A stretch of DNA of 64,000 bases, from positions 2,249 through 66,248 of the forward strand of contig JADGCQ010000008.1 in NCBI GenBank assembly GCA_015228925.1, in the 5' to 3' direction. Under the pieces are notes generated by a model, which saw nothing but the letters and a program-made list of their open reading frames with translations, was not told the DNA's origin and did no database searches. This document shows positions 7,909 through 63,385 of the stretch, one piece after another. Position numbers and translations under genes: made by a program. Numbering within the stretch: the first letter of the stretch is position 1; each line of letters opens with the position of its first letter. This DNA is from Magnetococcales bacterium. GTDB taxonomy: Bacteria > Pseudomonadota > Magnetococcia > Magnetococcales > UBA8363.

Positions 7909-7937
7909 CAATCGTTTTTAAGGGGGAGGGGACCACA

Positions 7938-10278: not shown

Positions 10279-11946
10279 TCAGGGGTCATATCCTGGAATT
10301 TTTTCTGGGATGACATCATCGATCTGTTTGGGGTTCAAATAGGTTTGCGCATATTCCAGATAGACTTTCTCCTTGATGAACACTTTAAAAAGGTCTGGGT
10401 CGATGTGCTGGTCTTTTTTCATGAATCCTAATATTTTCAATGATTCAGAAAGGGTTTTAGCAGGTTTATAGGGCCTGTCGGCTGCCGTCAAGGCCTCAAA
10501 GATATCGGCGATGGCCATGATTTTAGCACCGACAGACATCTGATCCCCTGTGAGACCATCGGGATAACCTCTGCCATTGATGGCTTCATGGTGCGATCCC
10601 GCCATTTCTGGGACACGACGTAAATGTTTGGGAAATGGGAGGGTTCGTAGCATATTTTGGGTCGCAACGACATGGTGATTAATGATCGTTCGTTCTTCCG
10701 GGGTCAAGGTTCCTTTGGCAATGTTCAGATTTTTTATTTCGTCCTCGGTCAGAAAATTCACCTTGGTACCGGTGCCATCGGTCCATTGGGTCTTGCCAAT
10801 TTCCAGAACCCTGTTTTGCCGCTCGGCAGACATAAATTCACCCCCGACATTGACCTCCCGAACGAACGCTTGATCGGATTTGATTTTGGCGATGGACTGG
10901 TTGAAATCTTCTTCCATCGCGGCGATGGCCGCATGATCCCCTTGTTCCATGGCCTCCATTTTTCGGCGTAGGAAGGCGATTTCGGCATCCCGTTTCAAAA
11001 CCTCAAAACGGGTATCGACGGTATGAATTCGGTCATGGATTGTTTCAAGTTTTGTTGCTTTGTCTACCACATATTCCGGGGTCACCACTTTGCCGCAATC
11101 GTGCATCCACGCCGCAATGCGCAGTTCGTAGATATCCTCTTCCGTGGGGTGGTAATCCTTTAACACGCCATCCTCACAACGCCTAGCGGCCTTGGCCAGT
11201 AACTCGGATAACACGGGTACCCGTTCGCAGTGCCCCCCGGTGTACTCTGACTTGTCGTCGATGGCGTTGGCGATGGCTTCGATGAACGATTCAAACAGCT
11301 TTTTCAAATCTTCGATCAAACGCTGATTGGTCATGGAAATAGCCGCTTGAGAAGCCAAGGATTCGGCCAGTTGCTGATCAGCCTTTGAAAAAGCGATAAT
11401 ATTTCCCGTGTGCGCATCTTTGGCGTTGATTAACTGCAACACACCGATAATTTCATTTTCATGATTTTTCAGGGGGACTGTCAAAAAGGATTTAGAACGG
11501 TAACCGGTCATCTGGTCAAACTTTTTAGTTCCCGAAAAATCATAGCCTTCCGCTTCGTAGGCGTCGGGTATATTAATGGTGGTATCGCGAAGAGCTGCCG
11601 CCGCTGCGATCATTTGCAGGTTGGGTTGGCCATTTTTATAAAGGGGGAGGGCAGGGTAGGGGATATCAACCCCCGTGGTCCCCCCCATGGCGATGTTGAG
11701 TGAATCGGTACGGATAATCTCAAACTTCAGCGTCTCTTCCACAGTTTTCGTATACATGGTGCCGGCATCGGCATTGGTTAAATCCTTGGCTCCCAGGAGA
11801 ATGTTTTCCAGCAACCTTTTGGTGTCCCTTTCGGAAGAAAGGGCAATGCCCAATTGATTGAGTTTATCAACCCGCGCTAGCAAATTGGACACATCCTGTA
11901 TTTCGGACGTTTTTCCAACTTGGTCGTCAATCGTTTTGGACCCCAT
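10279..11946 (-). CDS. GAF plus HD-GYP domain phosphodiesterase
   Basis: GAF SFLTVPLKNHENEIIGVLQLIN; YTGGHCERV, HDCGK, HHEAINGRGYP, IADIFEALT. Confidence 0.92.
   Translation of the reverse strand: MGSKTIDDQVGKTSEIQDVSNLLARVDKLNQLGIALSSERDTKRLLENILLGAKDLTNADAGTMYTKTVEETLKFEIIRTDSLNIAMGGTTGVDIPYPALPLYKNGQPNLQMIAAAAALRDTTINIPDAYEAEGYDFSGTKKFDQMTGYRSKSFLTVPLKNHENEIIGVLQLINAKDAHTGNIIAFSKADQQLAESLASQAAISMTNQRLIEDLKKLFESFIEAIANAIDDKSEYTGGHCERVPVLSELLAKAARRCEDGVLKDYHPTEEDIYELRIAAWMHDCGKVVTPEYVVDKATKLETIHDRIHTVDTRFEVLKRDAEIAFLRRKMEAMEQGDHAAIAAMEEDFNQSIAKIKSDQAFVREVNVGGEFMSAERQNRVLEIGKTQWTDGTGTKVNFLTEDEIKNLNIAKGTLTPEERTIINHHVVATQNMLRTLPFPKHLRRVPEMAGSHHEAINGRGYPDGLTGDQMSVGAKIMAIADIFEALTAADRPYKPAKTLSESLKILGFMKKDQHIDPDLFKVFIKEKVYLEYAQTYLNPKQIDDVIPEKIPGYDP
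11644..11661 (+). other. three overlapping KOPS motifs (GGGNAGGG) oriented toward dif
   Basis: GGGGAGGGCAGGGTAGGG; also coding sequence on the minus strand (Y-P-A-L-P region). Confidence 0.45.
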
Positions 11947-12151: not shown

Positions 12152-12179
12152 ATTTAACATAACGTCGATGTTGCGCACA
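12152..12179 (-). other. second dif-like XerCD site, inverted relative to the main dif
   Basis: Minus strand TGTGCGCAACA-TCGACG-TTATGTTAAAT: perfect XerD arm, 6-bp centre, XerC arm 8/11 to E. coli GGTGCGCATAA. Confidence 0.75.
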
Positions 12180-12209
12180 GGTTTTCTGGCTTTTATTAAT
12201 AATATAAAC

Positions 12210-12237
12210 AAGTCGCATAAGATGTATTATGTTAAAT
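12210..12237 (+). other. dif site (XerCD chromosome dimer resolution)
   Basis: AAGTCGCATAA-GATGTA-TTATGTTAAAT: XerD arm identical to E. coli dif, CGCATAA core in the XerC arm, 6-bp centre, intergenic AT-rich context. Confidence 0.9.
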
Positions 12238-12381: not shown

Positions 12382-12559
12382 AAAACCTTATGAACCTGTA
12401 TGTGTTTCTATTCATAACGAGAAACATCGCGGTCATGTAGATATTTCTCGTTTTCCATCGCGCCAATCAGATTGAGAAACACTTAGATCTCGTAATCATT
12501 TCCATTAGCGCATGTGCGGTTGAAAAAACGTGGAAACTGCCACGTCATGCCCGTCTTTC
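12382..12559. repeat. cluster 1 of 27-bp dyad boxes GAAAC-N17-RTTTC
   Basis: Boxes at 12382-12408, 12421-12447, 12476-12502 and 12533-12559, each with a 17-nt spacer. Confidence 0.7.
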
Positions 12560-12905
12560 CAAATAGACCCCATGGCCCCACACCGCACGCCCCACCGTCT
12601 ATCTTCGGTTCGTCGGCGCGGTTCAAAACAATCTGTGCATGGGGCGATCATATATATTCATAATGATTATATGGTACATCATTTAATGTGTGTTTGTCAT
12701 GCGCCGTGGCGTACTAGAATCCATGAAAACAACATGGCCCTCTCACCCGTGTTGGAAGAATGTTCCCGTTGCAGACCTTAGACAAACCGTGACAATCCGA
12801 ATCATTCATACCCCATTGCGCTTCCTGTTTTTAGCATATCTTGCCGTCATCGTGTGATGGGATTAAGATCCAAACCTTCCATGTCGCGGGTTACCTGTGT
12901 TAAAG

Positions 12906-13027
12906 GAATGTTTTACAGCGACAGATGGTTTCTTGATCGATAGAAGAAATACTACAGTGGCCTAAGTGTTTCTCATAGGCAAGATCATTAACGAAATTTA
13001 GAAACATCCCCTGTCCGTAACCGTTTC
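12906..13027. repeat. cluster 2 of 27-bp dyad boxes GAAAC-N17-GTTTC
   Basis: Boxes at 12906-12932 (left half degenerate), 12946-12972 and 13001-13027, each with a 17-nt spacer. Confidence 0.7.
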
Positions 13028-13051
13028 CATTAATTGAAAGTGCCTTCAATC

Positions 13052-15058
13052 ATGCGTCCCATTCTGGTTACCAGTGCCCTCCCCTACGCCAACGGTTCCA
13101 TCCATTTAGGCCATTTGGTGGAATACATTCAGACCGACATTTGGGTCCGTTTCCATAAAATTCGTGGCCGAGATTGTCTTTATTTTTGTGCCGACGATAC
13201 CCATGGAACGCCCATCATGATTCGCGCTCGCAATGAAGGGATCACCCCGGAAGCGTTGGTTGCGCGCATCCATGGGGAACATGTCGCCGACTTTCACGAT
13301 TTCTTGATTGGCTTTGACCATTATCATTCTACCAACTCCGAAGAAAACAAAATCCTCAGCGAAGAGGTTTATATCGCCAATCGTGAGGCTGGTCACATTC
13401 ACACAGCATCCGTGATGCAAGCCTATTGTGCCAAGGACGGTCTCTTTTTACCGGACCGCTTTATTCGTGGTGTTTGCCCATCCTGTGGTGCTTTGGACCA
13501 ATACGGTGATGCCTGTGAAGTCTGTTCGGCAACCTATTCCCCTCTGGAATTAAAGGAAGCACGGTGTGCTTTGTGTGGCACCTCTCCCGAAGAGCGGGCA
13601 TCAGAGCATTATTTTTTTAAATTGGGTGATTTTGAACCGTTCCTGAGGGAGTGGACCCGATCGGGCGCGTTGCAGGTGCAGATGGCCAACAAATTGTCGG
13701 AATGGTTTGAAGAAGGGTTGAAAGCCTGGGACATCTCCAGAGATGGACCCTACTTTGGTTTTGAAATTCCCGGCGCACCGGGAAAATACTTCTACGTCTG
13801 GCTAGACGCCCCAGTTGGCTATATGGCATCGTCATGGAGCTATTTTAAACAACATGGGATTGATTTCGACCGATACTGGCGTGACCCTGATCAAGTCGAA
13901 ATCTACCATTTCATCGGCAAAGATATCCTTTATTTTCATACCCTGTTCTGGCCTGCCATGCTCAAGGGGGCGGGTTTCAGAACACCGACCGGGGTTTTTG
14001 CGCATGGCTTCTTGACCGTCAATGGTCAAAAAATGTCCAAATCCCGGGGGACTTTCATCACGGCCAGAAGCTATCTCGAACAGCTTGATCCCGAATATTT
14101 GCGGTATTATTACGCCGCCAAGTTGACCAAGGGGGTGGATGACATCGATCTTAACCTGGACGATTTCGTGCAACGGGTCAATGCGGACATGGTGGGCAAG
14201 GTGGTCAATTTGGCTTCGCGGACGGCTGGTTTTATCCACAAGCATTTTCAAGGTCAACTTTCTGCGACCTATCCCGACGATCAAGGATTGTTCCAATCAT
14301 TCTTAACGGAAGCCGATACCATTGCCTCCTACTATCAGGAACGTGACTTCTCAAAAGCCATGCGGGCCATCATGGCCTTGGCGGACAGAGCCAACCGTTT
14401 CGTCGAAGAAAAAGCCCCTTGGACCTTGGCCAAGGAGAAACGGATGGTAGAATTACAGGATACGTGTTCGGTGGCGTTGAACCTTTTTCGGCTGCTGGTG
14501 ATGCAATTGCATCCGGTCTTGCCGGCGATGGCGGAAAAAACAAGGGTATTTCTTAATCTGCAAGATATCAATTGGTCTACAACAATTGTCCCATTGGCTG
14601 GGGTGACGATTGCCCCCTTCAGTCCGTTGATGGTGCGCGTGGACAGTCAGAAAGTACAAGCGATGGTGCAAGCTTCGTTGGCGACGGTTACGCCGGTGGT
14701 GGATGGGGTGAAAAAGGAAGAAAAAGGAGAAACAATCACCATGGAGACGTTCATGGGGGTTGATTTGCGCGTGGCGCGGATTACACAGGCTGAGGAGGTC
14801 GCGGGGGCGGATAAATTATTGCGGTTGCTCTTGGACGTGGGAGAATTGGGGTCACGGACTGTCTTGGCGGGGATACGGGGATCTTATACACCGGGGGATT
14901 TGTTGGGGCGTATGGTGGTGCTGGTGGCCAATTTGGAGGCGAGAAAGATGAAGTTCGGAGTCTCTGAGGGGATGGTGTTGGCTGCGGGGGACGGAAAAGG
15001 TCGATTATCGCTGATTGGCCCAGATGAAGGGGCGTCACCGGGAATGCGGGTCAAATAG
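13052..15058 (+). CDS. metG: methionine--tRNA ligase with C-terminal tRNA-binding domain
   Basis: [11 protein letters not shown] (HIGH-type), KMSKS, Cys zinc knuckles, C-terminal OB fold [10 protein letters not shown]; start placed at MRPILV. Confidence 0.97.
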
Positions 15059-15729: not shown

Positions 15730-17103
15730 CTATCCAACGATATTATAAATCCTCTTCCTGAATCCCACCCCTAACTCCTCCCGTGCGATTCGCTCACAGG
15801 CGGCAATATCCACCCCCTCCAGCCCTTCGATTGCCGTCGCCTGAACATCCTTCACATAATGCTTGACTGCTAAGCAAAACCCCTTCACCGCCTCATAAGA
15901 ACCCGCCAGCGACGGTCTGCAATGACGATCATAGACCATGGCATTCTGAGCATTGAGCGAAATGGAGACCGCATCCACCAATCCCGCAAACAACGGCGTC
16001 ACATCCCGTCCATACACCAAATTGGCCAATCCATCCGTGTTCACCCGAATCCGTTGACACCCCCTACCCTTCGCCCAACGGGCAACCTCCAACAACACCG
16101 ATAACCGCAACGTCGGTTCACCATAGCCGCAAAACACCAACTCCTCATATGCAGAAATGTCTCCCAACGCCGCGATGATCTCCTGCGCCTTGGGATTGTG
16201 ATGCAACGTCAGATCATAATGATGTACCCACGGCTTTTCCCACTTGGGACAAAATTGACACCGTAACGTACACCCCCCCGTCAGGTTGACATAGAGTCCT
16301 TTGCCGATGGCATAGGTCAACGTCTCCTTTTCCGGTGCCTCCAAACCAAATAAGCGCAGATAATTGGCGGTTGTCTGCGTCGCCAACTCTTCCAGGGATA
16401 TCCCCTTGACCTGAGCCAATACCCGTGCCACCTCAACGACGAAAGAGGGTTCATTGCGCTTACTGCGATGGGGCGTCGGGGCCAAATAGGGGGCATCCGT
16501 CTCCACCAAGAGTCGATCCAATGGAACCTCCGCAGCAACCTGCCGCAATGCTTGTGCACCACGAAACGTCAGAATACCCGAAAAACTGATATGATAGCCA
16601 AAATCAAGTGCCCAACGCGCCATGGCCAGCGATCCGGTAAAGCAATGAATCACCCCGCCACATCCCCTGCCCCCCTCCTCCTCCAAGACCCGAATGGTAT
16701 CACTTTCAGCCTCACGGGTATGAATGACCAACGGTAAATGACGCGCAACCGCGACCCGAATATGATCACGAAATACCCGTTCCTGCGCCTCTTTCGATGA
16801 ATGATTATAATGAAAGTCAAATCCCGTCTCACCCACAGCCACCATCTTGGGATGGTTCAACGCATTGAACAAGGCTGCCGTCACCCCCTCCCCCGCTTCT
16901 GCGGCATAATGGGGATGAATGCCAGCCGTGGTCGTGAGTTGTGGGTAAGACTCCACCAGATGGATTAACTCTTCAACTTCCGTTAATCGAGTGGAAATTG
17001 TATTAATGAAAGTCACTCCCGCTTGTTCGGCACGCTGGAGTATGGATTCCAAGTCCTGAGAAAAATCAGGAAAATTCAAATGACAATGGCTATCCGCAAG
17101 CAT
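15730..17103 (-). CDS. tatD: TatD family DNase fused to a TatD-associated radical SAM domain
   Basis: DSHCHL, GIHPH, VGETG, IHTRE, IHCFTG, ETDAPYL, then CTLRCQFC (CX3CX2C) and FCGYGEPT; start placed at MLADSH. Confidence 0.92.
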   Translation of the reverse strand: MLADSHCHLNFPDFSQDLESILQRAEQAGVTFINTISTRLTEVEELIHLVESYPQLTTTAGIHPHYAAEAGEGVTAALFNALNHPKMVAVGETGFDFHYNHSSKEAQERVFRDHIRVAVARHLPLVIHTREAESDTIRVLEEEGGRGCGGVIHCFTGSLAMARWALDFGYHISFSGILTFRGAQALRQVAAEVPLDRLLVETDAPYLAPTPHRSKRNEPSFVVEVARVLAQVKGISLEELATQTTANYLRLFGLEAPEKETLTYAIGKGLYVNLTGGCTLRCQFCPKWEKPWVHHYDLTLHHNPKAQEIIAALGDISAYEELVFCGYGEPTLRLSVLLEVARWAKGRGCQRIRVNTDGLANLVYGRDVTPLFAGLVDAVSISLNAQNAMVYDRHCRPSLAGSYEAVKGFCLAVKHYVKDVQATAIEGLEGVDIAACERIAREELGVGFRKRIYNIVG

Positions 17104-17129
17104 TTTTTCCCCCTGGTATACCGCCAAAT

Positions 17130-56265: not shown

Positions 56266-59200
56266 TCAGTGATCTTTGTCCAATGCACTGGGAAAATTCA
56301 ACTCATCGGGCATATTTTCAAGGTACGGTGGTGGTTCAATACCAAGACGTTTAAGAAGATCATCCAACAACATCCAATCCCCTTCCGGGGTTACCAGATC
56401 TCCCCGAATATAGGCCCGCAGACACCATTGCAATCGTCCTTCCCGTTTTTCGGGATGGCGGGCCAAATCTTCCAATAACACCCGATCTTCCGGGGTGCTT
56501 CTGCGGGCGATGTGCCGCGCCAGGGCAGACCACAGGGGTTCCGGGCGCTGTAATTTTTTATAATAGGCCATTGCTTGTTGAAATGCCCTGTCATCTCCTC
56601 CCTGATGAAACGAAAGCCGACAGGCATGATGGAATAATTCTATTTCTGGTCCAAAAGGTTCTTTATTAATAGAATCATGTTCTAGCTGCCCATGGGCCAA
56701 CAGAGCGCGGGTGCCTGCACGACCTGGAGACAACACTTCCGTCGTCAACAAATCCAAATGGGAATTCCGCTTTGGGTCCATTTTGATGTCATGCGCCAAG
56801 TCATGCGCCCAGTCGCGCACCCAGTCGCGCGCCAAGTCGCGCGCCAAGTCGCGCGCCCAGTCGCGCGCCAAGTAGTGCGCCAAGTACCGCGCCAAGTCGC
56901 GCGCCAAGTACCGCGCCAAGTCGTGCGCCAAGTCGTGCGCCCAGTCGTGCGCCAAGTCGTGCGCCAAGTACCGCGCCAAGTCGTGCGCCAAGTACCGCGT
57001 CAAGTCGCGCGCCCAATCACGCTCCAAGTCACGCGCCAAGTCACGCGATTTCCTGCTTTCAGCCCCTGGAAATAACCAGCAAAAGGAAGTTTGCCCAAGT
57101 GACAAGGCCAACTCAAAACCAAGAACAAAGAGAAGGTTTTGACCAGAAAACCCCCACTGACGGCGTCTTCCAGGCCAAGTTTGTATGAGAAGACTTTCAC
57201 TCCAACCTGGCCAGATGGAAACACCGCCATTGAGGAGTCGTCCCACGGCAAGCCCCTTGTCCCCCTCTGGGGCATCATTCATGGCGTGCAGGAACAGCGT
57301 GAAGCCAGGGCGAGCATGATCACGCATTGGTTGTAAACCGATCATTTCCAACCCTGTATTCAACCGCTGACAAGCCATCCAATTGGCATTGTTAGCTCCC
57401 TCACTCTGCCATTGGCGCTGAATGATGGCTTTACTCTCCTCTTTCCTACTGACTTTCCAAGCGTCCAACCCTTGATCGGTACCACGTTTCCAATCTTTCG
57501 CCAGCGCAATACCACTCCTCTTAGACCACTCTTTGACATGTTTCAATAAATCATCAGCAAGAAAAGTTCCTGCCAACCATAATCCATATTCTTCATCTTC
57601 GCATAGATGAGAAAATACTGGTTCTAACCGTTCCGGGTTGATATCAGCGACTAGGGCGGCCCAAAGACGTAATGTTTCCCACCAAAAGCCAAGGTGTCTC
57701 CATTGAGCAACCAATACAATCCGCCCTTGATCACCTTCTATGGTAGCTTGCAGATGCCAAGCGGTGAGAAATTCTTGAAAACTCAGATGGGCAAAAGAAA
57801 GTTTATAGTCAGTGCGATCCACCAACACCCCGGCGGGACCAGAAAGCCAGGATAAGAAACCATCCTTATGGGCTGAATCCCAGTCGGACGGTAAATATTT
57901 GGCCATCTCCTCCCAGGATTGCACCAAACTTTTTCTTCCGGTTTTTTCATCATACCCTGTTTCCTGCATCCCATGGGCCAGTGCTGCGACAACACGAAAG
58001 CGTTCGGCCCCAGAATCGGGACGCCAACGATGCCGTTCTCCCCGCACCCCCTCCTGTTCCCTACGGTCGGGCAGTGCTGACAGGAGATTATCCAAAGTGA
58101 CCTGATAAAGCTTGTGCCGACGGTCCGGGAGAGGGCTGGTGCGGCTGACCAGGAGCATCATGGTCAGCAACAAAGCGGTACGGGCCAAATCATGAGCTTC
58201 GGGGGTATGAAACAATCGGTCTATAAATTCTTCGGTCGCTTTTTTCCCGGCCACCTGATCGCTACCATGAATGTGCTGAAAAAAATTCCCGGAGAGTTTC
58301 CTGATTTCTCTATCATCCAGAGGCTGAACATCCCACACCGTAAAACCCTCATTGTAGGTGGGACTATCGCCATACGGACGACTACTGAGAACCACCTTCA
58401 TGCCACTGTTCTTTTTCATGAAAACCAACAATTTTTGACGGAAATCTTGGCCCAACTCCCCCAGTTCATCCCACCCATCCACCAATAAAACTGGAGTAAC
58501 TGTTTTCGTTCTGGCAAACTGAAGGAAAAAGGCCTCTTGCCATTCTTTCAGCCCATATTCCGCCAACCACGATCCCAAAAATGATTCCAGATTATGGAAT
58601 TTTTCTTCGACATTCTGCCAATACCGCGCCAAAGCTCGCAGTTCCACGAAAAACGGAAACGTATCCTCACGTGTTAATAATTGCCGAAAGGTCCACCGCA
58701 TCCAGGTGGTCTTGCCCGACCCCGCCACACCGCGCACAACCAGGGGTTTACTCAGAGATAGCACCTCTTCAGGTTCCAGTGTCTTTCCCTCTTCAAGCTT
58801 ATCTGGATCATATCCCTTACCCAAGCGCAAAGAAACATACATGTTTTCCAGCGTGGCATCCACCACCTTGTCCTTTGCTGGTCCCGACGCAGCTGCCCCC
58901 ACATGGCGCAAATCCCATCGGTCAAAGAGAAAAGCCAGTTTTTCCCGATATGCCCGCAAGAAAGGGGCACTCATGACACTTTCTGGCTGCGGTGCAGCAA
59001 ATGGCCAGTTCTCATAACCTCGAAAAAAAATCCAGGCGTCATCAGCCGATTGAGCTACTTGATCAGGTTTTAAATTGAACAATGCACACACAACACTGAC
59101 CAGCGCATTACCCGCTTTTTCCCAGTTTTCTTTCCTGAAATCGGCAAAAGCAGGCTTACTTTCCAACTTGGTTTTGTCGTCCATCCTAAAAGCATGGGGA

Positions 59201-59559
59201 AAACAATGATCTGGATCATGGATATGTTCAAGCCAATCGGAATTTCCTGCAAAAACACAGGCAATGATCTGTTTATTACCGCGAATCTTCTTAAAATTTT
59301 GAATTTCAAGTTCCACATAAGGGGATTTGGCAGATTCGGGGGTACAGAGGAGGATTAAGAACTCGGATTGTTCTAATGCAGCGACTATCTTTCCATCCAA
59401 ATCGGCCCCTGCGGCAATCTTGGCGGTATCGAAAAAAATAGTTTCATCGTTCAGTTCATTTTTAAAGCGTTCGATGGAAAACAATCGTTTACGCAACCAT
59501 TGGGCTTGGTCGGTATTCTCCCGACTGTAGCTGATAAACGCCTTATATGGAAACCCCAT
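56266..59559 (-). CDS. TIR-NACHT (STAND NTPase) protein with a C-terminal tetrapeptide repeat; putative defence NLR
   Basis: AFISYS TIR box with Glu in SPYVELEI; Walker A GVAGSGKTT; Walker B LLVDGWDE; SSRP; FAHLSFQEFLTA winged-helix motif. Confidence 0.9.
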   Translation of the reverse strand: MGFPYKAFISYSRENTDQAQWLRKRLFSIERFKNELNDETIFFDTAKIAAGADLDGKIVAALEQSEFLILLCTPESAKSPYVELEIQNFKKIRGNKQIIACVFAGNSDWLEHIHDPDHCFPHAFRMDDKTKLESKPAFADFRKENWEKAGNALVSVVCALFNLKPDQVAQSADDAWIFFRGYENWPFAAPQPESVMSAPFLRAYREKLAFLFDRWDLRHVGAAASGPAKDKVVDATLENMYVSLRLGKGYDPDKLEEGKTLEPEEVLSLSKPLVVRGVAGSGKTTWMRWTFRQLLTREDTFPFFVELRALARYWQNVEEKFHNLESFLGSWLAEYGLKEWQEAFFLQFARTKTVTPVLLVDGWDELGELGQDFRQKLLVFMKKNSGMKVVLSSRPYGDSPTYNEGFTVWDVQPLDDREIRKLSGNFFQHIHGSDQVAGKKATEEFIDRLFHTPEAHDLARTALLLTMMLLVSRTSPLPDRRHKLYQVTLDNLLSALPDRREQEGVRGERHRWRPDSGAERFRVVAALAHGMQETGYDEKTGRKSLVQSWEEMAKYLPSDWDSAHKDGFLSWLSGPAGVLVDRTDYKLSFAHLSFQEFLTAWHLQATIEGDQGRIVLVAQWRHLGFWWETLRLWAALVADINPERLEPVFSHLCEDEEYGLWLAGTFLADDLLKHVKEWSKRSGIALAKDWKRGTDQGLDAWKVSRKEESKAIIQRQWQSEGANNANWMACQRLNTGLEMIGLQPMRDHARPGFTLFLHAMNDAPEGDKGLAVGRLLNGGVSIWPGWSESLLIQTWPGRRRQWGFSGQNLLFVLGFELALSLGQTSFCWLFPGAESRKSRDLARDLERDWARDLTRYLAHDLARYLAHDLAHDWAHDLAHDLARYLARDLARYLAHYLARDWARDLARDLARDWVRDWAHDLAHDIKMDPKRNSHLDLLTTEVLSPGRAGTRALLAHGQLEHDSINKEPFGPEIELFHHACRLSFHQGGDDRAFQQAMAYYKKLQRPEPLWSALARHIARRSTPEDRVLLEDLARHPEKREGRLQWCLRAYIRGDLVTPEGDWMLLDDLLKRLGIEPPPYLENMPDELNFPSALDKDH
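56782..57045 (-). repeat. in-frame 12-bp tandem repeat, 22 units, encoding (R/H)(D/Y)(L/W)A
   Basis: Consensus minus-strand unit CGCGACTTGGCG; protein RDLA RDLE RDWA RDLT RYLA HDLA ... HDIK. Confidence 0.95.
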
Positions 59560-59569
59560 GACTCCCCCA

Positions 59570-62500
59570 TCATTTAACCAAAGGTTTGGCTTGCAACGCC
59601 ATCATAATCGTTTCATAACCTGTGGTCAACTCTGAGGGAACTTCCAGGGGTTTCCAACGCCCTTCCATCCTTTGAAGGGCTTGCCGGTTCAGCGTAAAAT
59701 AATCGCCTAAATATTGTCCCTGCTGAAAATGTTGTCTGGCTTGCGATAATTTTCCATGGCGTTGATTGGCCAAGCCCAGAAGAAGATGGATCACCGCCAT
59801 ATCCCGATGGGCATCACGGGGGGCCTGTTTTTCCACCTCGGAAAAGTCGGTCTCAATATGGTTGGGATCCAATAACATTTTGCGAATCACCCGATGGCCC
59901 GGACCAAAATTGGCATCATCCGGGTTATACGCCCGCTCGATACTCTCCCGCTTGATCACCTCCGGCGTCCCCAACAACAACGCCGAATAAATCCCAAACT
60001 TTTCCAACCAACGGGGATTCATCACCGAAGGTTCCAAAAATTCCTCAATCGCCAACGAAGATGCCGTCCATTTGAATAGGGTCTCAAATTGTCCCGCCTC
60101 CCAAAAACTGATCTGAAACATCAAGTGCAACATCGTCTGGTCCGGCATCTCCCGCAAACCATCCAGCACAACCCGCATATGGTCGAATAACGCTTGACTA
60201 TCCCCCCCATTTTCCCACTTGCTGTGAAACACATTGGCACTCGCGGTGACATGATTCAACCGCGATAATTTTTGAAATTCCTCTTTTCCCGATTGTTCCG
60301 CCAAGTGTGATTCCCACGCCGATTTTTCATTCACCTGCTCCAACGCCTCCGCCACCAACCCCATCCCCTGCAACGCCTGCGAATAATTGTCAATCAATAC
60401 CGTATCCCACGGGCGCAACCGAACCGCCTCCTTCAACAACAACGCCCCCGTCTCTCCCAAGCCATTGTCCTTCATCACCTTCGCCCGCTGCACCATCTCA
60501 TCCACGCTCAACGTCCCCAAGTCGGGATGAACCCCCGTGATGTCGGGCAATTTTACATCCTTCAAACCATCGATAAAAATCACCCCCTGAGGCGTCCCCA
60601 AGGCCAAGGTATCCTCACCCTCATCATAGGCCTGACTCAAGATCGGGGTCGTCAAAGGTAACGTGCGATAATTGGCATGGGAATCTTCCAAACCGTGAAT
60701 CGTCAACGATCCCCCCGCATCCCCAGCCAGCAACAAAACCCCCGCCTCGGAATCCTTCCACGCCATCAACGTCGTCGCCGATGAAACCCCATTCTCAATG
60801 ACTTTTTCCACCTTCCAGGTGTTGGTGTTCAACAGCGCAATCTGACCGCTCGCCAACGCCAAAGCGACCCGATTCCCCCCCGGAATCGAGGTCATGTCCA
60901 GGACAATCCCCCCCGGCAACGCCGTCTCGCTGATGATTTTGCGGGTGTTTAAATCAAACTGAATCACCTTCCCTTCCGCCGCTCCTTGCCAGCGAACATT
61001 AACGGCAATCAGAATGCGCCCCGGTGTCGGCAACACAATAAAATTATTAATCTCTCCGGTCACCAGCCACTGGGCATTGTCATGATTTTCCGCCAACAGA
61101 AAATAAGGGGTCAAACCGTTCTCCCCCAGCCGATAAATGCCGCTCCCCTTTTGGCCAAATCGCTGGGATACCACCACAAAATCGGGGGAAACAAAGCCAA
61201 TGAAATGGATGGAATCCCCCAAGGATTGCGCCGTCAATACTTGGTTTTTCTCCGGGTGTCCCGGGACAACCCGTTTCACCTGCCCATCCGCCGTCCCCAC
61301 CAAAAACTGACCATCCGGCAGCACCGCCGCTACCGTCGCCCCCTCCGAACCCGCAACCATTTCCGGCAAACTCGCCTCATCGGCAAACCGTTGCAAGATC
61401 CCATACCCCTTGGCCAAACATTGATGGTCCGCCAATAAGGAAGGGCCAACCATGGCAAAGGTTTGAATCATCCGCGCCTGATTCACCGTGATGCGCTCGG
61501 TCGGACCCTGCAACGCCCCACACACCATGGCATACCATGCGTCCCCCTCCTTCCCCTTCCACAACTGCCGCACCGGCAATACCGTGGGGATAAAATGCCG
61601 ATCTTCCACCGGCAAGATCTCATACACCGCCCCCTGGACAATCAAACCAAACAGATGCCCCTCATCCGAATAAGCCACCTGACTGAACCGCTCCGGGGCT
61701 TCATAAACCATGGTTTCCCGCCCACTGGCCAGTTCCCACTCCACCAAACCCGGTTTACGGTTGGTATCGGGCGGCCAAACCACTGCCACCGCCAAACGGT
61801 TGTCATCGGGAGAAAAAGCCAGGTCAAAAAGCCCCCCTTCCAATTTTTTATCCCATAAATACCGCCCATCCGCGACCCCCACCATCCCCACATGACCATC
61901 ATGGGTGTACCAAGCGACCCAATCCCCCCCATGGGACATCCTGAACTCCGCCGGACGATCATGAATCGGTTGTTGCCAAACCATCCGATCCCCCGGCAAA
62001 TCCCACCGGGTCACCATCCCTGGCCCATAGGCCCAAAAAATAGAATTTCCATCATTTGTTATCGCAACTGAGGCCGACCCCTGTTTTCCGGCTGGGGTTT
62101 TATTCCCCCGCCACACCACCGTCAACGCCCCACCCTGGGCCACATCGTACACCATGATCGAACCATCCTCACACCCCAGCACCAGCCGGTCCCGATCCCG
62201 CGCCTTGGCCATCCAAGAACAAGATTGCCCATGATCCGCCAACACGGTAAACCGCATTTCACCCAACGCAAAGCGGAGCAAACGACCCCGTTTCTGTCCA
62301 AGAATGAATACCGTTTCGCCATCGGTCGCCATCGCCGAAGTCAAGCTCAACCCCGCATCATGATCGGCTTGGCGAATGGACCCATTCCCCTCATAAACCA
62401 CCACCTTGTCTTCCGCCACCACCACCAGACGACCATCACCCAAGACGTGCAACCCTTTGCCGATCAAGGGCCGTTTCAGGTTATAAACCTGCTCGGACGG

Positions 62501-63385
62501 CAAGTGTCCCAGGGTGTCCCACAACCCCGTCCGCGTCAGCCAGTCGGGGTGAATGCCATAGGCATCAAACCCTTTTTTCACCCCGTTGCGAATGCGTCCT
62601 TGGGAAACCTCCAGATGCGCCGTTTGCGTCCATGACTCTGCTAGGTTTTTGTGTGCCTGTTCCAAATTATGGACCGCCTGCCCCTTTTGATACCACGCAA
62701 AGAGACCCAAACCCGTCATGATCACCGCAATCATGACCGACAGCGTGATAGCCGCCTGCATGATTTGGCGGCTACGGCGTTGCTGAAATAGAATCAATCG
62801 CTCCGGGGCCACCCGCAACAAGCTACTCGCCACCCGTGCCAGTTCCGTCCCCCACGCTGTCCCTTGGTTCCAACGAAAGTCGGCCCAGGCCGGTTCATCC
62901 TCCAATTGATTGATCGTCTCCCCCTGGAAATCGATCCGATAACGCAACGCCCGTGGCAGACATTGATCGGGTGCGGGGATCGTTTCCAATGTCTCCCCGC
63001 TGCCCGAAGTGAGCAGAGGTGTCCCTTTGAAAAGACAAAAAATAATGTTTTCCGCCCCACGATGCTGTTTAAAATAACGGATTTCCTGATCGACCCACTC
63101 CGACCGGGCAGCATGGGGGGTGCAGATGACAATCAAAAATTCCGATTGGCGCAGACTTTCTTTAATTTTTTCTGACAAACTTGGGATGGTGCCGATGGCC
63201 GCTTCGTCAATAAACAGCCTGTCATCGGTAATCTGCTCCTTGAACAAAGTCGCCAACTGTATGTCATCCTTGGGCATTTTCATACGCGAAAGAAAATAAC
63301 GAAACCATTGGGCACGCCGTTTATCTTTACGACTGTAGGAAATGAACGCTTTATAGGGAAAAGCGGATAGAGCCATGACGACCAA
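59570..63385 (-). CDS. TIR domain, single TM helix, WD40-like beta-propeller region and TPR-like helical C-terminus
   Basis: AFISYS TIR with SEWVDQEI; TM AAITLSVMIAVIMTGLGLFAWY; blades such as LAFSPDDNRLAV, LVLGCEDGSIMVYD, LLAGDAGGSLTIH; TPR-like VIHLLLGLANQRHGKLSQARQHFQQG. Confidence 0.85.
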   Translation of the reverse strand: MVVMALSAFPYKAFISYSRKDKRRAQWFRYFLSRMKMPKDDIQLATLFKEQITDDRLFIDEAAIGTIPSLSEKIKESLRQSEFLIVICTPHAARSEWVDQEIRYFKQHRGAENIIFCLFKGTPLLTSGSGETLETIPAPDQCLPRALRYRIDFQGETINQLEDEPAWADFRWNQGTAWGTELARVASSLLRVAPERLILFQQRRSRQIMQAAITLSVMIAVIMTGLGLFAWYQKGQAVHNLEQAHKNLAESWTQTAHLEVSQGRIRNGVKKGFDAYGIHPDWLTRTGLWDTLGHLPSEQVYNLKRPLIGKGLHVLGDGRLVVVAEDKVVVYEGNGSIRQADHDAGLSLTSAMATDGETVFILGQKRGRLLRFALGEMRFTVLADHGQSCSWMAKARDRDRLVLGCEDGSIMVYDVAQGGALTVVWRGNKTPAGKQGSASVAITNDGNSIFWAYGPGMVTRWDLPGDRMVWQQPIHDRPAEFRMSHGGDWVAWYTHDGHVGMVGVADGRYLWDKKLEGGLFDLAFSPDDNRLAVAVVWPPDTNRKPGLVEWELASGRETMVYEAPERFSQVAYSDEGHLFGLIVQGAVYEILPVEDRHFIPTVLPVRQLWKGKEGDAWYAMVCGALQGPTERITVNQARMIQTFAMVGPSLLADHQCLAKGYGILQRFADEASLPEMVAGSEGATVAAVLPDGQFLVGTADGQVKRVVPGHPEKNQVLTAQSLGDSIHFIGFVSPDFVVVSQRFGQKGSGIYRLGENGLTPYFLLAENHDNAQWLVTGEINNFIVLPTPGRILIAVNVRWQGAAEGKVIQFDLNTRKIISETALPGGIVLDMTSIPGGNRVALALASGQIALLNTNTWKVEKVIENGVSSATTLMAWKDSEAGVLLLAGDAGGSLTIHGLEDSHANYRTLPLTTPILSQAYDEGEDTLALGTPQGVIFIDGLKDVKLPDITGVHPDLGTLSVDEMVQRAKVMKDNGLGETGALLLKEAVRLRPWDTVLIDNYSQALQGMGLVAEALEQVNEKSAWESHLAEQSGKEEFQKLSRLNHVTASANVFHSKWENGGDSQALFDHMRVVLDGLREMPDQTMLHLMFQISFWEAGQFETLFKWTASSLAIEEFLEPSVMNPRWLEKFGIYSALLLGTPEVIKRESIERAYNPDDANFGPGHRVIRKMLLDPNHIETDFSEVEKQAPRDAHRDMAVIHLLLGLANQRHGKLSQARQHFQQGQYLGDYFTLNRQALQRMEGRWKPLEVPSELTTGYETIMMALQAKPLVK

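Follow-up and report, generated by a model that had tools for sequence, protein, structure and literature searches.

Two 28-bp dif-type sites lie back to back, 30 bp apart and with their XerD arms facing outward, in the 64-kb stretch of Magnetococcales DNA analysed in this study (hereafter the window). Because the arrangement is retained in related magnetotactic cocci and recurs in several further bacterial groups, we regard the pair as a form of dif that looks inherited and has probably been selected, and not as a scar or an artefact. Our preferred explanation, in which we place middling confidence and which is judged from the closest listed loci, is that the locus would represent a terminus dif inherited in Magnetococcales as a back-to-back pair, namely a canonical dif and a diverged partner. 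A preliminary description of this DNA had claimed an inverted pair with this geometry, and the positions and letters of both sites were found to be exactly as given there.

Sequence and position of the two sites

The features of the locus are listed below, with positions counted from the first letter of the window.

10279..11946, minus strand: gene for a GAF and HD-GYP-type (HD_5) signalling protein, left flank (Pfam HD_5, 5e-40; GAF)
11644..11661, plus strand: last plus-strand KOPS-like motifs before the pair, three overlapping copies of GGGNAGGG
12152..12179, minus strand: site 1, the partner; XerC-like arm TGTGCGCAACA, centre TCGACG, XerD arm TTATGTTAAAT, with the XerD arm toward the HD-GYP gene
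12180..12209, no strand: spacer between both XerC arms, 30 bp, 7/30 G+C
12210..12237, plus strand: site 2, the canonical dif; XerC arm AAGTCGCATAA, centre GATGTA, XerD arm TTATGTTAAAT; faces metG
13052..15058, plus strand: metG (methionine-tRNA ligase), right flank (NCBIfam PRK00133, 5e-267)
13077..13084, minus strand: first minus-strand KOPS-like motif after the pair, a match to GGGNAGGG

Read on the plus strand, site 1 is ATTTAACATAA-CGTCGA-TGTTGCGCACA (12152-12179). As the preliminary description had stated, the XerD arms are perfect at both sites (11/11 each), the centres of site 1 and site 2 are unlike, differing at 6/6 positions, and the spacer is rich in A and T. The similarity between the sites is concentrated in the XerD arm. 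Outside this arm, site 1 agrees with site 2 at only 5/17 nt, and the two XerC arms are identical at 5/11 positions.

The exact 11-mer TTATGTTAAAT occurs in two copies when both strands of the 64-kb window are searched, only at the two sites, and no extra copy appears in the window when one mismatch is allowed. The chance expectation for this 11-mer is a shuffle mean of 0.01, and two or more matches were obtained in 0/100 shuffles. Similarly, a wider dif pattern, consisting of 8 nt of the XerC arm, 6 N, and the XerD arm and allowing at most three mismatches in all, is found in the window only at site 1 and site 2 (expected 0.04; two or more in 0/100 shuffles). A chance pair is ruled out by these shuffle counts for the 11-mer and the wider pattern. 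When the sites are compared with the general dif layout of an 11-bp XerC arm, a 6-bp centre, and an 11-bp conserved XerD arm, site 2 has all of the elements, whereas site 1 shares the layout and the XerD arm but its XerC arm is weak. According to Table 1 of Carnoy and Roten (PMC2731167), the XerD arm of the E. coli K12 dif is identical to TTATGTTAAAT, and site 2 overall resembles the alpha- and delta-proteobacterial dif sites with GATA-type centres in the same table. The G+C content of site 2 is 7/28, compared with approximately 0.45-0.52 in surrounding windows.

The pair sits in a 1.09-kb intergenic region between the HD-GYP gene and metG. The start of metG is likely the ATG at 13052 rather than the TTG at 13034, and the N-terminus from 13052 is common to the related loci L004, L020, and L053, which are introduced below. 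The five small ORFs of the intergenic region matched 0 PHROG families and no Pfam or NCBIfam entry, and the intergenic DNA had no match by blastn against 50,697 phage records and no family in Rfam. The window has approximately 700 bp between site 2 and metG that are absent in L004, L020, and L053, in which metG begins approximately 80-100 bp past the pair. Inside this extra stretch, a perfect 14-bp inverted repeat (12473-12486 and 12962-12975) encloses 475 bp. The resulting unit (12473-12975) could be a small non-autonomous insertion beside dif, and no second copy of it was found in the window or among the 120 listed loci described below.

The remainder of the window holds ordinary chromosomal genes, including ettA, holB, tmk, fab genes, uvrC, an hrpA-like helicase gene, polysaccharide genes, and flagellin, and no xerC, xerD, or ftsK was found among the scanned ORFs of the 64-kb window. 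Two other parts of the window deserve mention. Two adjacent minus-strand ORFs, 56266-59559 and 59570-63385, encode proteins of 1097 and 1271 aa that each start with a TIR_2 domain; the second (59570-63385) also has weak beta-propeller matches, and the two may form a signalling or defence pair. The minus-strand ORF 15730-17127 encodes a TatD-family nuclease fused to a TatD-associated radical SAM domain (TIGR00010 and TIGR04038).

The position of the pair relative to the replication terminus was assessed by strand polarity. We used GGGNAGGG as the KOPS motif, which we take to be the E. coli consensus and which may not be the host's own. All 7 occurrences of this motif left of the pair are on the plus strand, and to the right of the pair 15 are on the minus strand and 2 on the plus strand, counts that apply to the E. 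coli motif and may differ for that of the host. The KOPS-like strand switch at the pair is significant (Fisher p = 1e-4) and lies between 11654 and 13077, an interval that spans the pair. The nearest KOPS-like cluster pointing at the sites is the one at 11644-11661, approximately 490 bp to the left and within the HD-GYP gene. The cumulative GC skew reaches its maximum at 7931 and forms a plateau up to approximately 16 kb, after which it falls. Furthermore, the minus-strand bias of the KOPS-like motif persists at 34-54 kb, where the local GC skew is positive, and the bias therefore does not merely reflect gene-strand skew. Because the KOPS-like strand switch and the GC-skew plateau coincide at the pair, we place the pair at the terminus. 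Within the 64-kb window and with the E. coli KOPS motif, all of the terminus features of a dif are thus present, namely the skew switch, the convergence of KOPS, the intergenic position, and the low G+C content.

Site 2 therefore resembles a canonical E. coli-type dif in its 11-6-11 layout, its identical XerD arm, its intergenic location, its low G+C content, and its position at the skew and KOPS switch. The locus differs from a canonical dif in having two sites, the second of which is inverted, approximately 30 bp away, and provided with its own centre. A single copy was used as a survey criterion for dif by Carnoy and Roten (PMC2731167), and the window departs from it with two sites 30 bp apart.

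Conservation of the pair in Magnetococcales

Genome contigs were scanned for two outward-facing perfect XerD arms located 34-94 nt apart, and at least 120 loci matched. The scan lists pairs only, with single-dif genomes outside its scope, and the identity of the XerD arms in the listed loci is preset by the search pattern. Six of the 120 listed loci belong to Magnetococcales (L004, L020, L051, L053, L094, and L117). The preliminary description had proposed to search related genomes for such pairs, and this comparison found the pair kept at the same intergenic position in 4/6 listed Magnetococcales, flanked by orthologues of the same two genes, the HD-GYP gene and metG (L004, L020, L053, and L117). 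In L094, the HD-GYP gene was found within the available 300-bp flank. In L051, neither the HD-GYP gene nor metG is beside the pair, the partner consists of the XerD arm only, and the spacer is 12 bp. Because the architecture is repeated in six assemblies from other species, an assembly artefact is ruled out.

The related loci are well separated at the protein level. The HD-GYP orthologues at the pair share 78-80% identity with that of the window in L004, L020, and L053, and short N-terminal matches in L117 and L094 share approximately 56%. The MetG protein of the window is 78-79% identical to those of L004, L020, and L053; the corresponding value is 81% for L004 and L053 and 97% for L004 and L020. 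The spacer has a nearly constant length, with 30 bp in the window, 31 bp in each of L004, L020, L053, and L117, and 28 bp in L094. Its letters are not retained, and the mean pairwise identity of the spacers is 0.41 compared with 0.45 after shuffling (14 pairs). The two flanks are likewise at shuffle level (0.56 vs. 0.54 and 0.52 vs. 0.53; 14 pairs), and the conserved columns of the alignment are essentially confined to the two 28-mers.

The XerC arms, which were not demanded by the search pattern, agree at 8-11/11 positions at every site except window site 1. The XerC arm of window site 2 matches the other Magnetococcales arms at 8-11/11 positions, compared with 5-7/11 for that of window site 1, in which the changes are at inner positions. 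The centre GATGTA of site 2 is identical in L004, L020, L094, and L117. The partner has a full XerC arm in 5/6 listed Magnetococcales loci and shares its centre with the main site in three of these six.

Two evolutionary modes can be distinguished among these loci, according to whether the two centres match or have diverged. In L053, L117, and L094, one centre (GATATA or GATGTA) is common to both sites. The two 28-bp sites of L094 (301-384) are identical, and in L053 (approximately 1986-2102) the inverted symmetry extends 15 nt past each XerD arm to give 41-nt arms. The identical sites of L094 and the extended symmetry of L053 indicate that one site is sometimes copied onto the other, and such copying could give a partner the look of conservation even if selection does not act on it directly. 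The G+C-rich partner centres are TCGACG in the window, GCAACG in L004, and ACGACG in L020, and the variant centre of the window matches that of L020 at 5/6 positions and that of L004 at 4/6. In the window the variant centre is the one nearer the HD-GYP gene, whereas in L004 and L020 it is nearer metG. This change of side would be accounted for by one inversion, affecting either the inner cassette or the unit as a whole, and an independent origin of the variant centres in the window and in L004 and L020 is possible.

Proposed function and alternative explanations

In our preferred explanation, site 2 would be the XerC/XerD recombination site that resolves chromosome dimers, and site 1 would be a diverged partner in which the XerD arm is perfect, the centre is G+C-rich and unrelated, and the XerC arm is weakened. 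Because its XerC arm is weakened and its centre is unrelated, we infer from the sequence that site 1 is most likely mainly a XerD-binding site. FtsK guided by KOPS from either replichore would meet a XerD-bound arm first, and it is from the XerD side that FtsK activates XerD. The unlike centres would keep both sites from recombining with each other. According to Bonne et al. (PMC2673442), the nucleotides beside the XerD arm are crucial for activation by FtsK, and according to Graham et al. (PMC2800217), FtsK can reach and stop at XerCD-dif from either side; the proposed mechanism draws on both findings.

Several considerations count against this explanation. In E. coli, one dif works in vivo, with FtsK halting there from either side. 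A second outward XerD arm is therefore not obviously needed. In addition, two fully active sites could undo each other's crossover. The exceptional locus L051, with its XerD-arm-only partner, its 12-bp spacer, and its lack of synteny, also counts against the preferred explanation.

The preliminary description had offered two options, a symmetric terminus in which each site recombines only with its sister copy and the scar of an integrative element exploiting Xer (IMEX) or an empty pdif module, and the comparative data favour the symmetric terminus over a scar or an empty module. The first option is upheld with respect to the KOPS and GC-skew switch, the same intergenic place in 4/6 listed Magnetococcales, and the neutral DNA diverged to shuffle level. 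The degraded XerC arm of site 1 argues against the part of it that supposes two equally active recombination sites. The second option fares poorly: a third dif-like site was not found in the 64-kb window, the intergenic region gave neither a phage nor a PHROG signal, and the position of the pair is fixed across species, without any trace of mobility.

The partner could also be a neutral relic of an old event at dif, either a CTX-type single-stranded IMEX junction or a fold-back inverted duplication, that persists through copying from the real dif, an explanation that we consider unlikely. In the attP of CTX, two dif-like sites are inverted relative to each other and separated by 90 bp (PMC4246890), and by our own derivation an integration of the CTX type would leave an inverted site beside a regenerated dif. 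The recent homogenisation in L053 and L094, which in L053 reaches 15 nt into the outer flank, is consistent with a relic, as are the decayed XerC arm of window site 1 and the stretch of approximately 700 bp between site 2 and metG that is absent in relatives. However, no third dif-like site exists in 64 kb, and the intergenic region yielded no PHROG, phage-DNA, or Rfam match. The position and the spacing of the pair are constant across species whose neutral DNA is saturated, and decay of site 1 would have been uneven, with 11/11 positions of the XerD arm intact and only 5 of the other 17 nt agreeing with site 2. Moreover, at least four separate lineages carry conserved pairs of this kind. An IMEX remnant in the 1.09-kb intergenic region was rejected on these searches, and the two dif-like sites, the only ones found in 64 kb, are inverted rather than direct attL/attR repeats and enclose 30 bp with no phage signal.

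A further explanation, which we regard as slightly less probable than a relic but still a live one, is that the partner is a XerD-only accessory site similar to the XDS of Bacillus subtilis, which would unload or block Smc-ScpAB or another translocating machine beside dif. In Bacillus subtilis, the XDS are dispersed over the terminus region and are not known to abut dif. They are terminus sites at which XerD binding, rather than XerC/XerD recombination, would matter, and this would fit window site 1 with its perfect XerD arm and degraded XerC arm. A canonical dif accompanied by a XerD-arm-only partner is also found at other loci, such as L017, L025, L051, and L054, and the unloading system of XerD and XDS is described in a review (PMC11894783). 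The partner sites of the relatives, by contrast, retain full XerC arms. A partner with a full XerC arm in 5/6 listed Magnetococcales, and with the same centre in three of them, looks like a complete recombination site.

The inverted pairs of Xer sites in the CTX attP and in pdif modules, which the preliminary description had invoked as background, agree with the accounts of these systems in PMC4246890 and PMC13141974, and both systems suggest a further explanation. By analogy with the CTX attP, the pair could be one folded site, in which the single-stranded or cruciform sites anneal to a dif-like hairpin that serves as a docking or recombination substrate; we consider this very improbable. The window resembles the attP of CTX-phi in having two close inverted XerCD-type sites with non-matching centres. 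The XerD arms would pair at 11/11 positions in this inverted geometry, and the centres would form a bubble as in the CTX attP. The identical sites of L094 would suit such folding, and the 5- and 7-nt centres of some Bacteroidota pairs recall the odd centres of CTX attP1 and attP2. The attP of CTX-phi, however, belongs to a phage genome, has its sites 90 bp apart with centres of 12 and 5-7 bp, and acts as folded single-stranded DNA (PMC4246890), whereas in the window both centres are 6 bp, the pair lies on the chromosome in a syntenic position, and only a weak hairpin is predicted. The combination of a stable hairpin, an unpaired centre, and a single-stranded phage genome that characterises a CTX-type attP was not found for the window. 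Its XerC arms pair at just 5/11 positions, and folding of the plus strand (z = -1.7; 14/200 shuffles as good) and of the minus strand (z = -1.7; 11/200) is no better than that of shuffled DNA, by which the hairpin reading was rejected. Furthermore, the identity of the arms within a genome (5, 8, 9, 9, 7, and 11) is no higher than that between genomes, and there is therefore no sign of covariation that would maintain pairing.

We find it hardly credible that the pair is an empty pdif-type C module, a mobile cassette bounded by Xer sites whose cargo has been lost; the inverse orientation with internal XerC arms is the C-module geometry of Acinetobacter (PMC13141974), and pairs 16-26 bp apart are carried by small Acinetobacter contigs (L006, L022, L052, and L065), but the window pair occupies a chromosomal locus at the terminus with no cargo, has the same gene neighbours in 4/6 listed related loci, and is accompanied by no second module or alternating sites in 64 kb. 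The pdif modules of Acinetobacter carry genes, are located on Rep_3 plasmids, alternate with D modules, and change contexts (PMC13141974), whereas the sites of the window pair have just 30 bp between them and keep their place on the chromosome. Only the geometry of a pdif module is thus present here, without cargo or alternation and with a position that is fixed in 4/6 listed related loci. The outward pdif-like pairs of the four Acinetobacter contigs are formally cargo-less C modules, and a megablast search of L006 against plasmids returned four short unannotated matches only.

Earlier reports and pairs in other lineages

In our literature search we came across no account of inverted dif sites a short distance apart on a chromosome, and the accessible portions of the dif surveys of 2009 and 2011 and of a 2017 review describe no such pair. 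The nearest prior report in the sources consulted concerns the opposite dif sites of Lactobacillus delbrueckii ssp. bulgaricus, which lie in a 47.5-kb inverted repeat (PMC5345009). That chromosome is similar to the present case in being a natural chromosome with two inverted dif sites at the terminus. Its dif sites are passengers of the terminus inverted repeat and are regarded as a complication (PMC5345009), whereas only the 28-bp sites are repeated here, 30 bp apart and conserved across species. Because dif is treated as unique and a single copy serves as a survey criterion, surveys would overlook paired sites or collapse them into a single site. The conserved pair provides a natural test of the long-standing question whether the side from which FtsK approaches XerCD-dif matters in vivo. 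It may also connect Xer sites with further functions of the terminus, for instance SMC unloading or translocase blocking. For annotation, the second site should not be called an IMEX junction or a misassembly.

Pairs with two XerC-like arms are also present outside Magnetococcales. Among the 120 listed loci, an ATAA-ended XerC-like arm located 5-7 nt from the XerD arm is present at both sites in 55, at one site in 25, and at neither site in 40, and an outer-flank control found such an arm at both sites in 1/119 loci. Counted per site, the listed loci have a XerC-like arm at 135/240 inner positions compared with 10/238 in the outer-flank control. The 40 listed loci that lack a XerC-like arm represent either palindromes of another kind or pairs that arose by chance in A+T-rich DNA. 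The 55 two-arm loci comprise 39 from Bacteroidota, 5 from Magnetococcales, 4 from Gallibacterium, 2 from Gemmata-like planctomycetes, and one each from Victivallaceae, Methylophagaceae, Sedimenticola, Thiothrix, and Acinetobacter. The spacing is specific to the lineage, with 18-19 in Weeksellaceae, 10-11 in Gallibacterium, and 21-32 in Pontibacter. In the listed loci of Pontibacter (5), Gallibacterium (4), and Weeksellaceae (5), both sites are conserved blocks amid diverged surroundings, and within each of these groups the partner has its own conserved arm and centre.

These pairs raise the broader proposal, which we put forward tentatively and regard as rather less probable than our explanation of the Magnetococcales locus, that several phyla have a distinct architecture of the terminus, a "two-faced dif", which is inherited vertically. 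Its carriers would include Magnetococcales, many Bacteroidota, Gallibacterium, and Gemmata-like planctomycetes. In this architecture, a canonical dif would be coupled to an outward partner at a short, lineage-specific distance, such that XerD would meet FtsK or SMC from both replichores. The inner cassette, consisting of the centres, the XerC arms, and the spacer, could be flipped through exchange at the two XerD cleavage points, and such a flip would explain why the variant centre is nearer the HD-GYP gene in the window but nearer metG in L004 and L020.

The spacing within the sites is itself variable in part of Bacteroidota. In the loci L031, L049, L055, L076, L042, L005, L105, L111, L112, and L120, the XerC-like arm is 5 nt from the XerD arm on one side and 7 nt on the other. 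No phage genes were found near these pairs in a Pfam search of 19 flanking ORFs from 6 full-flank loci, which returned ordinary cellular families only, and on this basis a phage setting for such unequal pairs was rejected. Recurrent palindromes that contain the same 11-mer and have no XerC-like arm were also observed (L036, L063, L078, L100, and L119; L083, L085, and L108; L002). One such unit is conserved in Epilithonimonas and Chryseobacterium, and another recurs on several replicons of a single Stappiaceae MAG.
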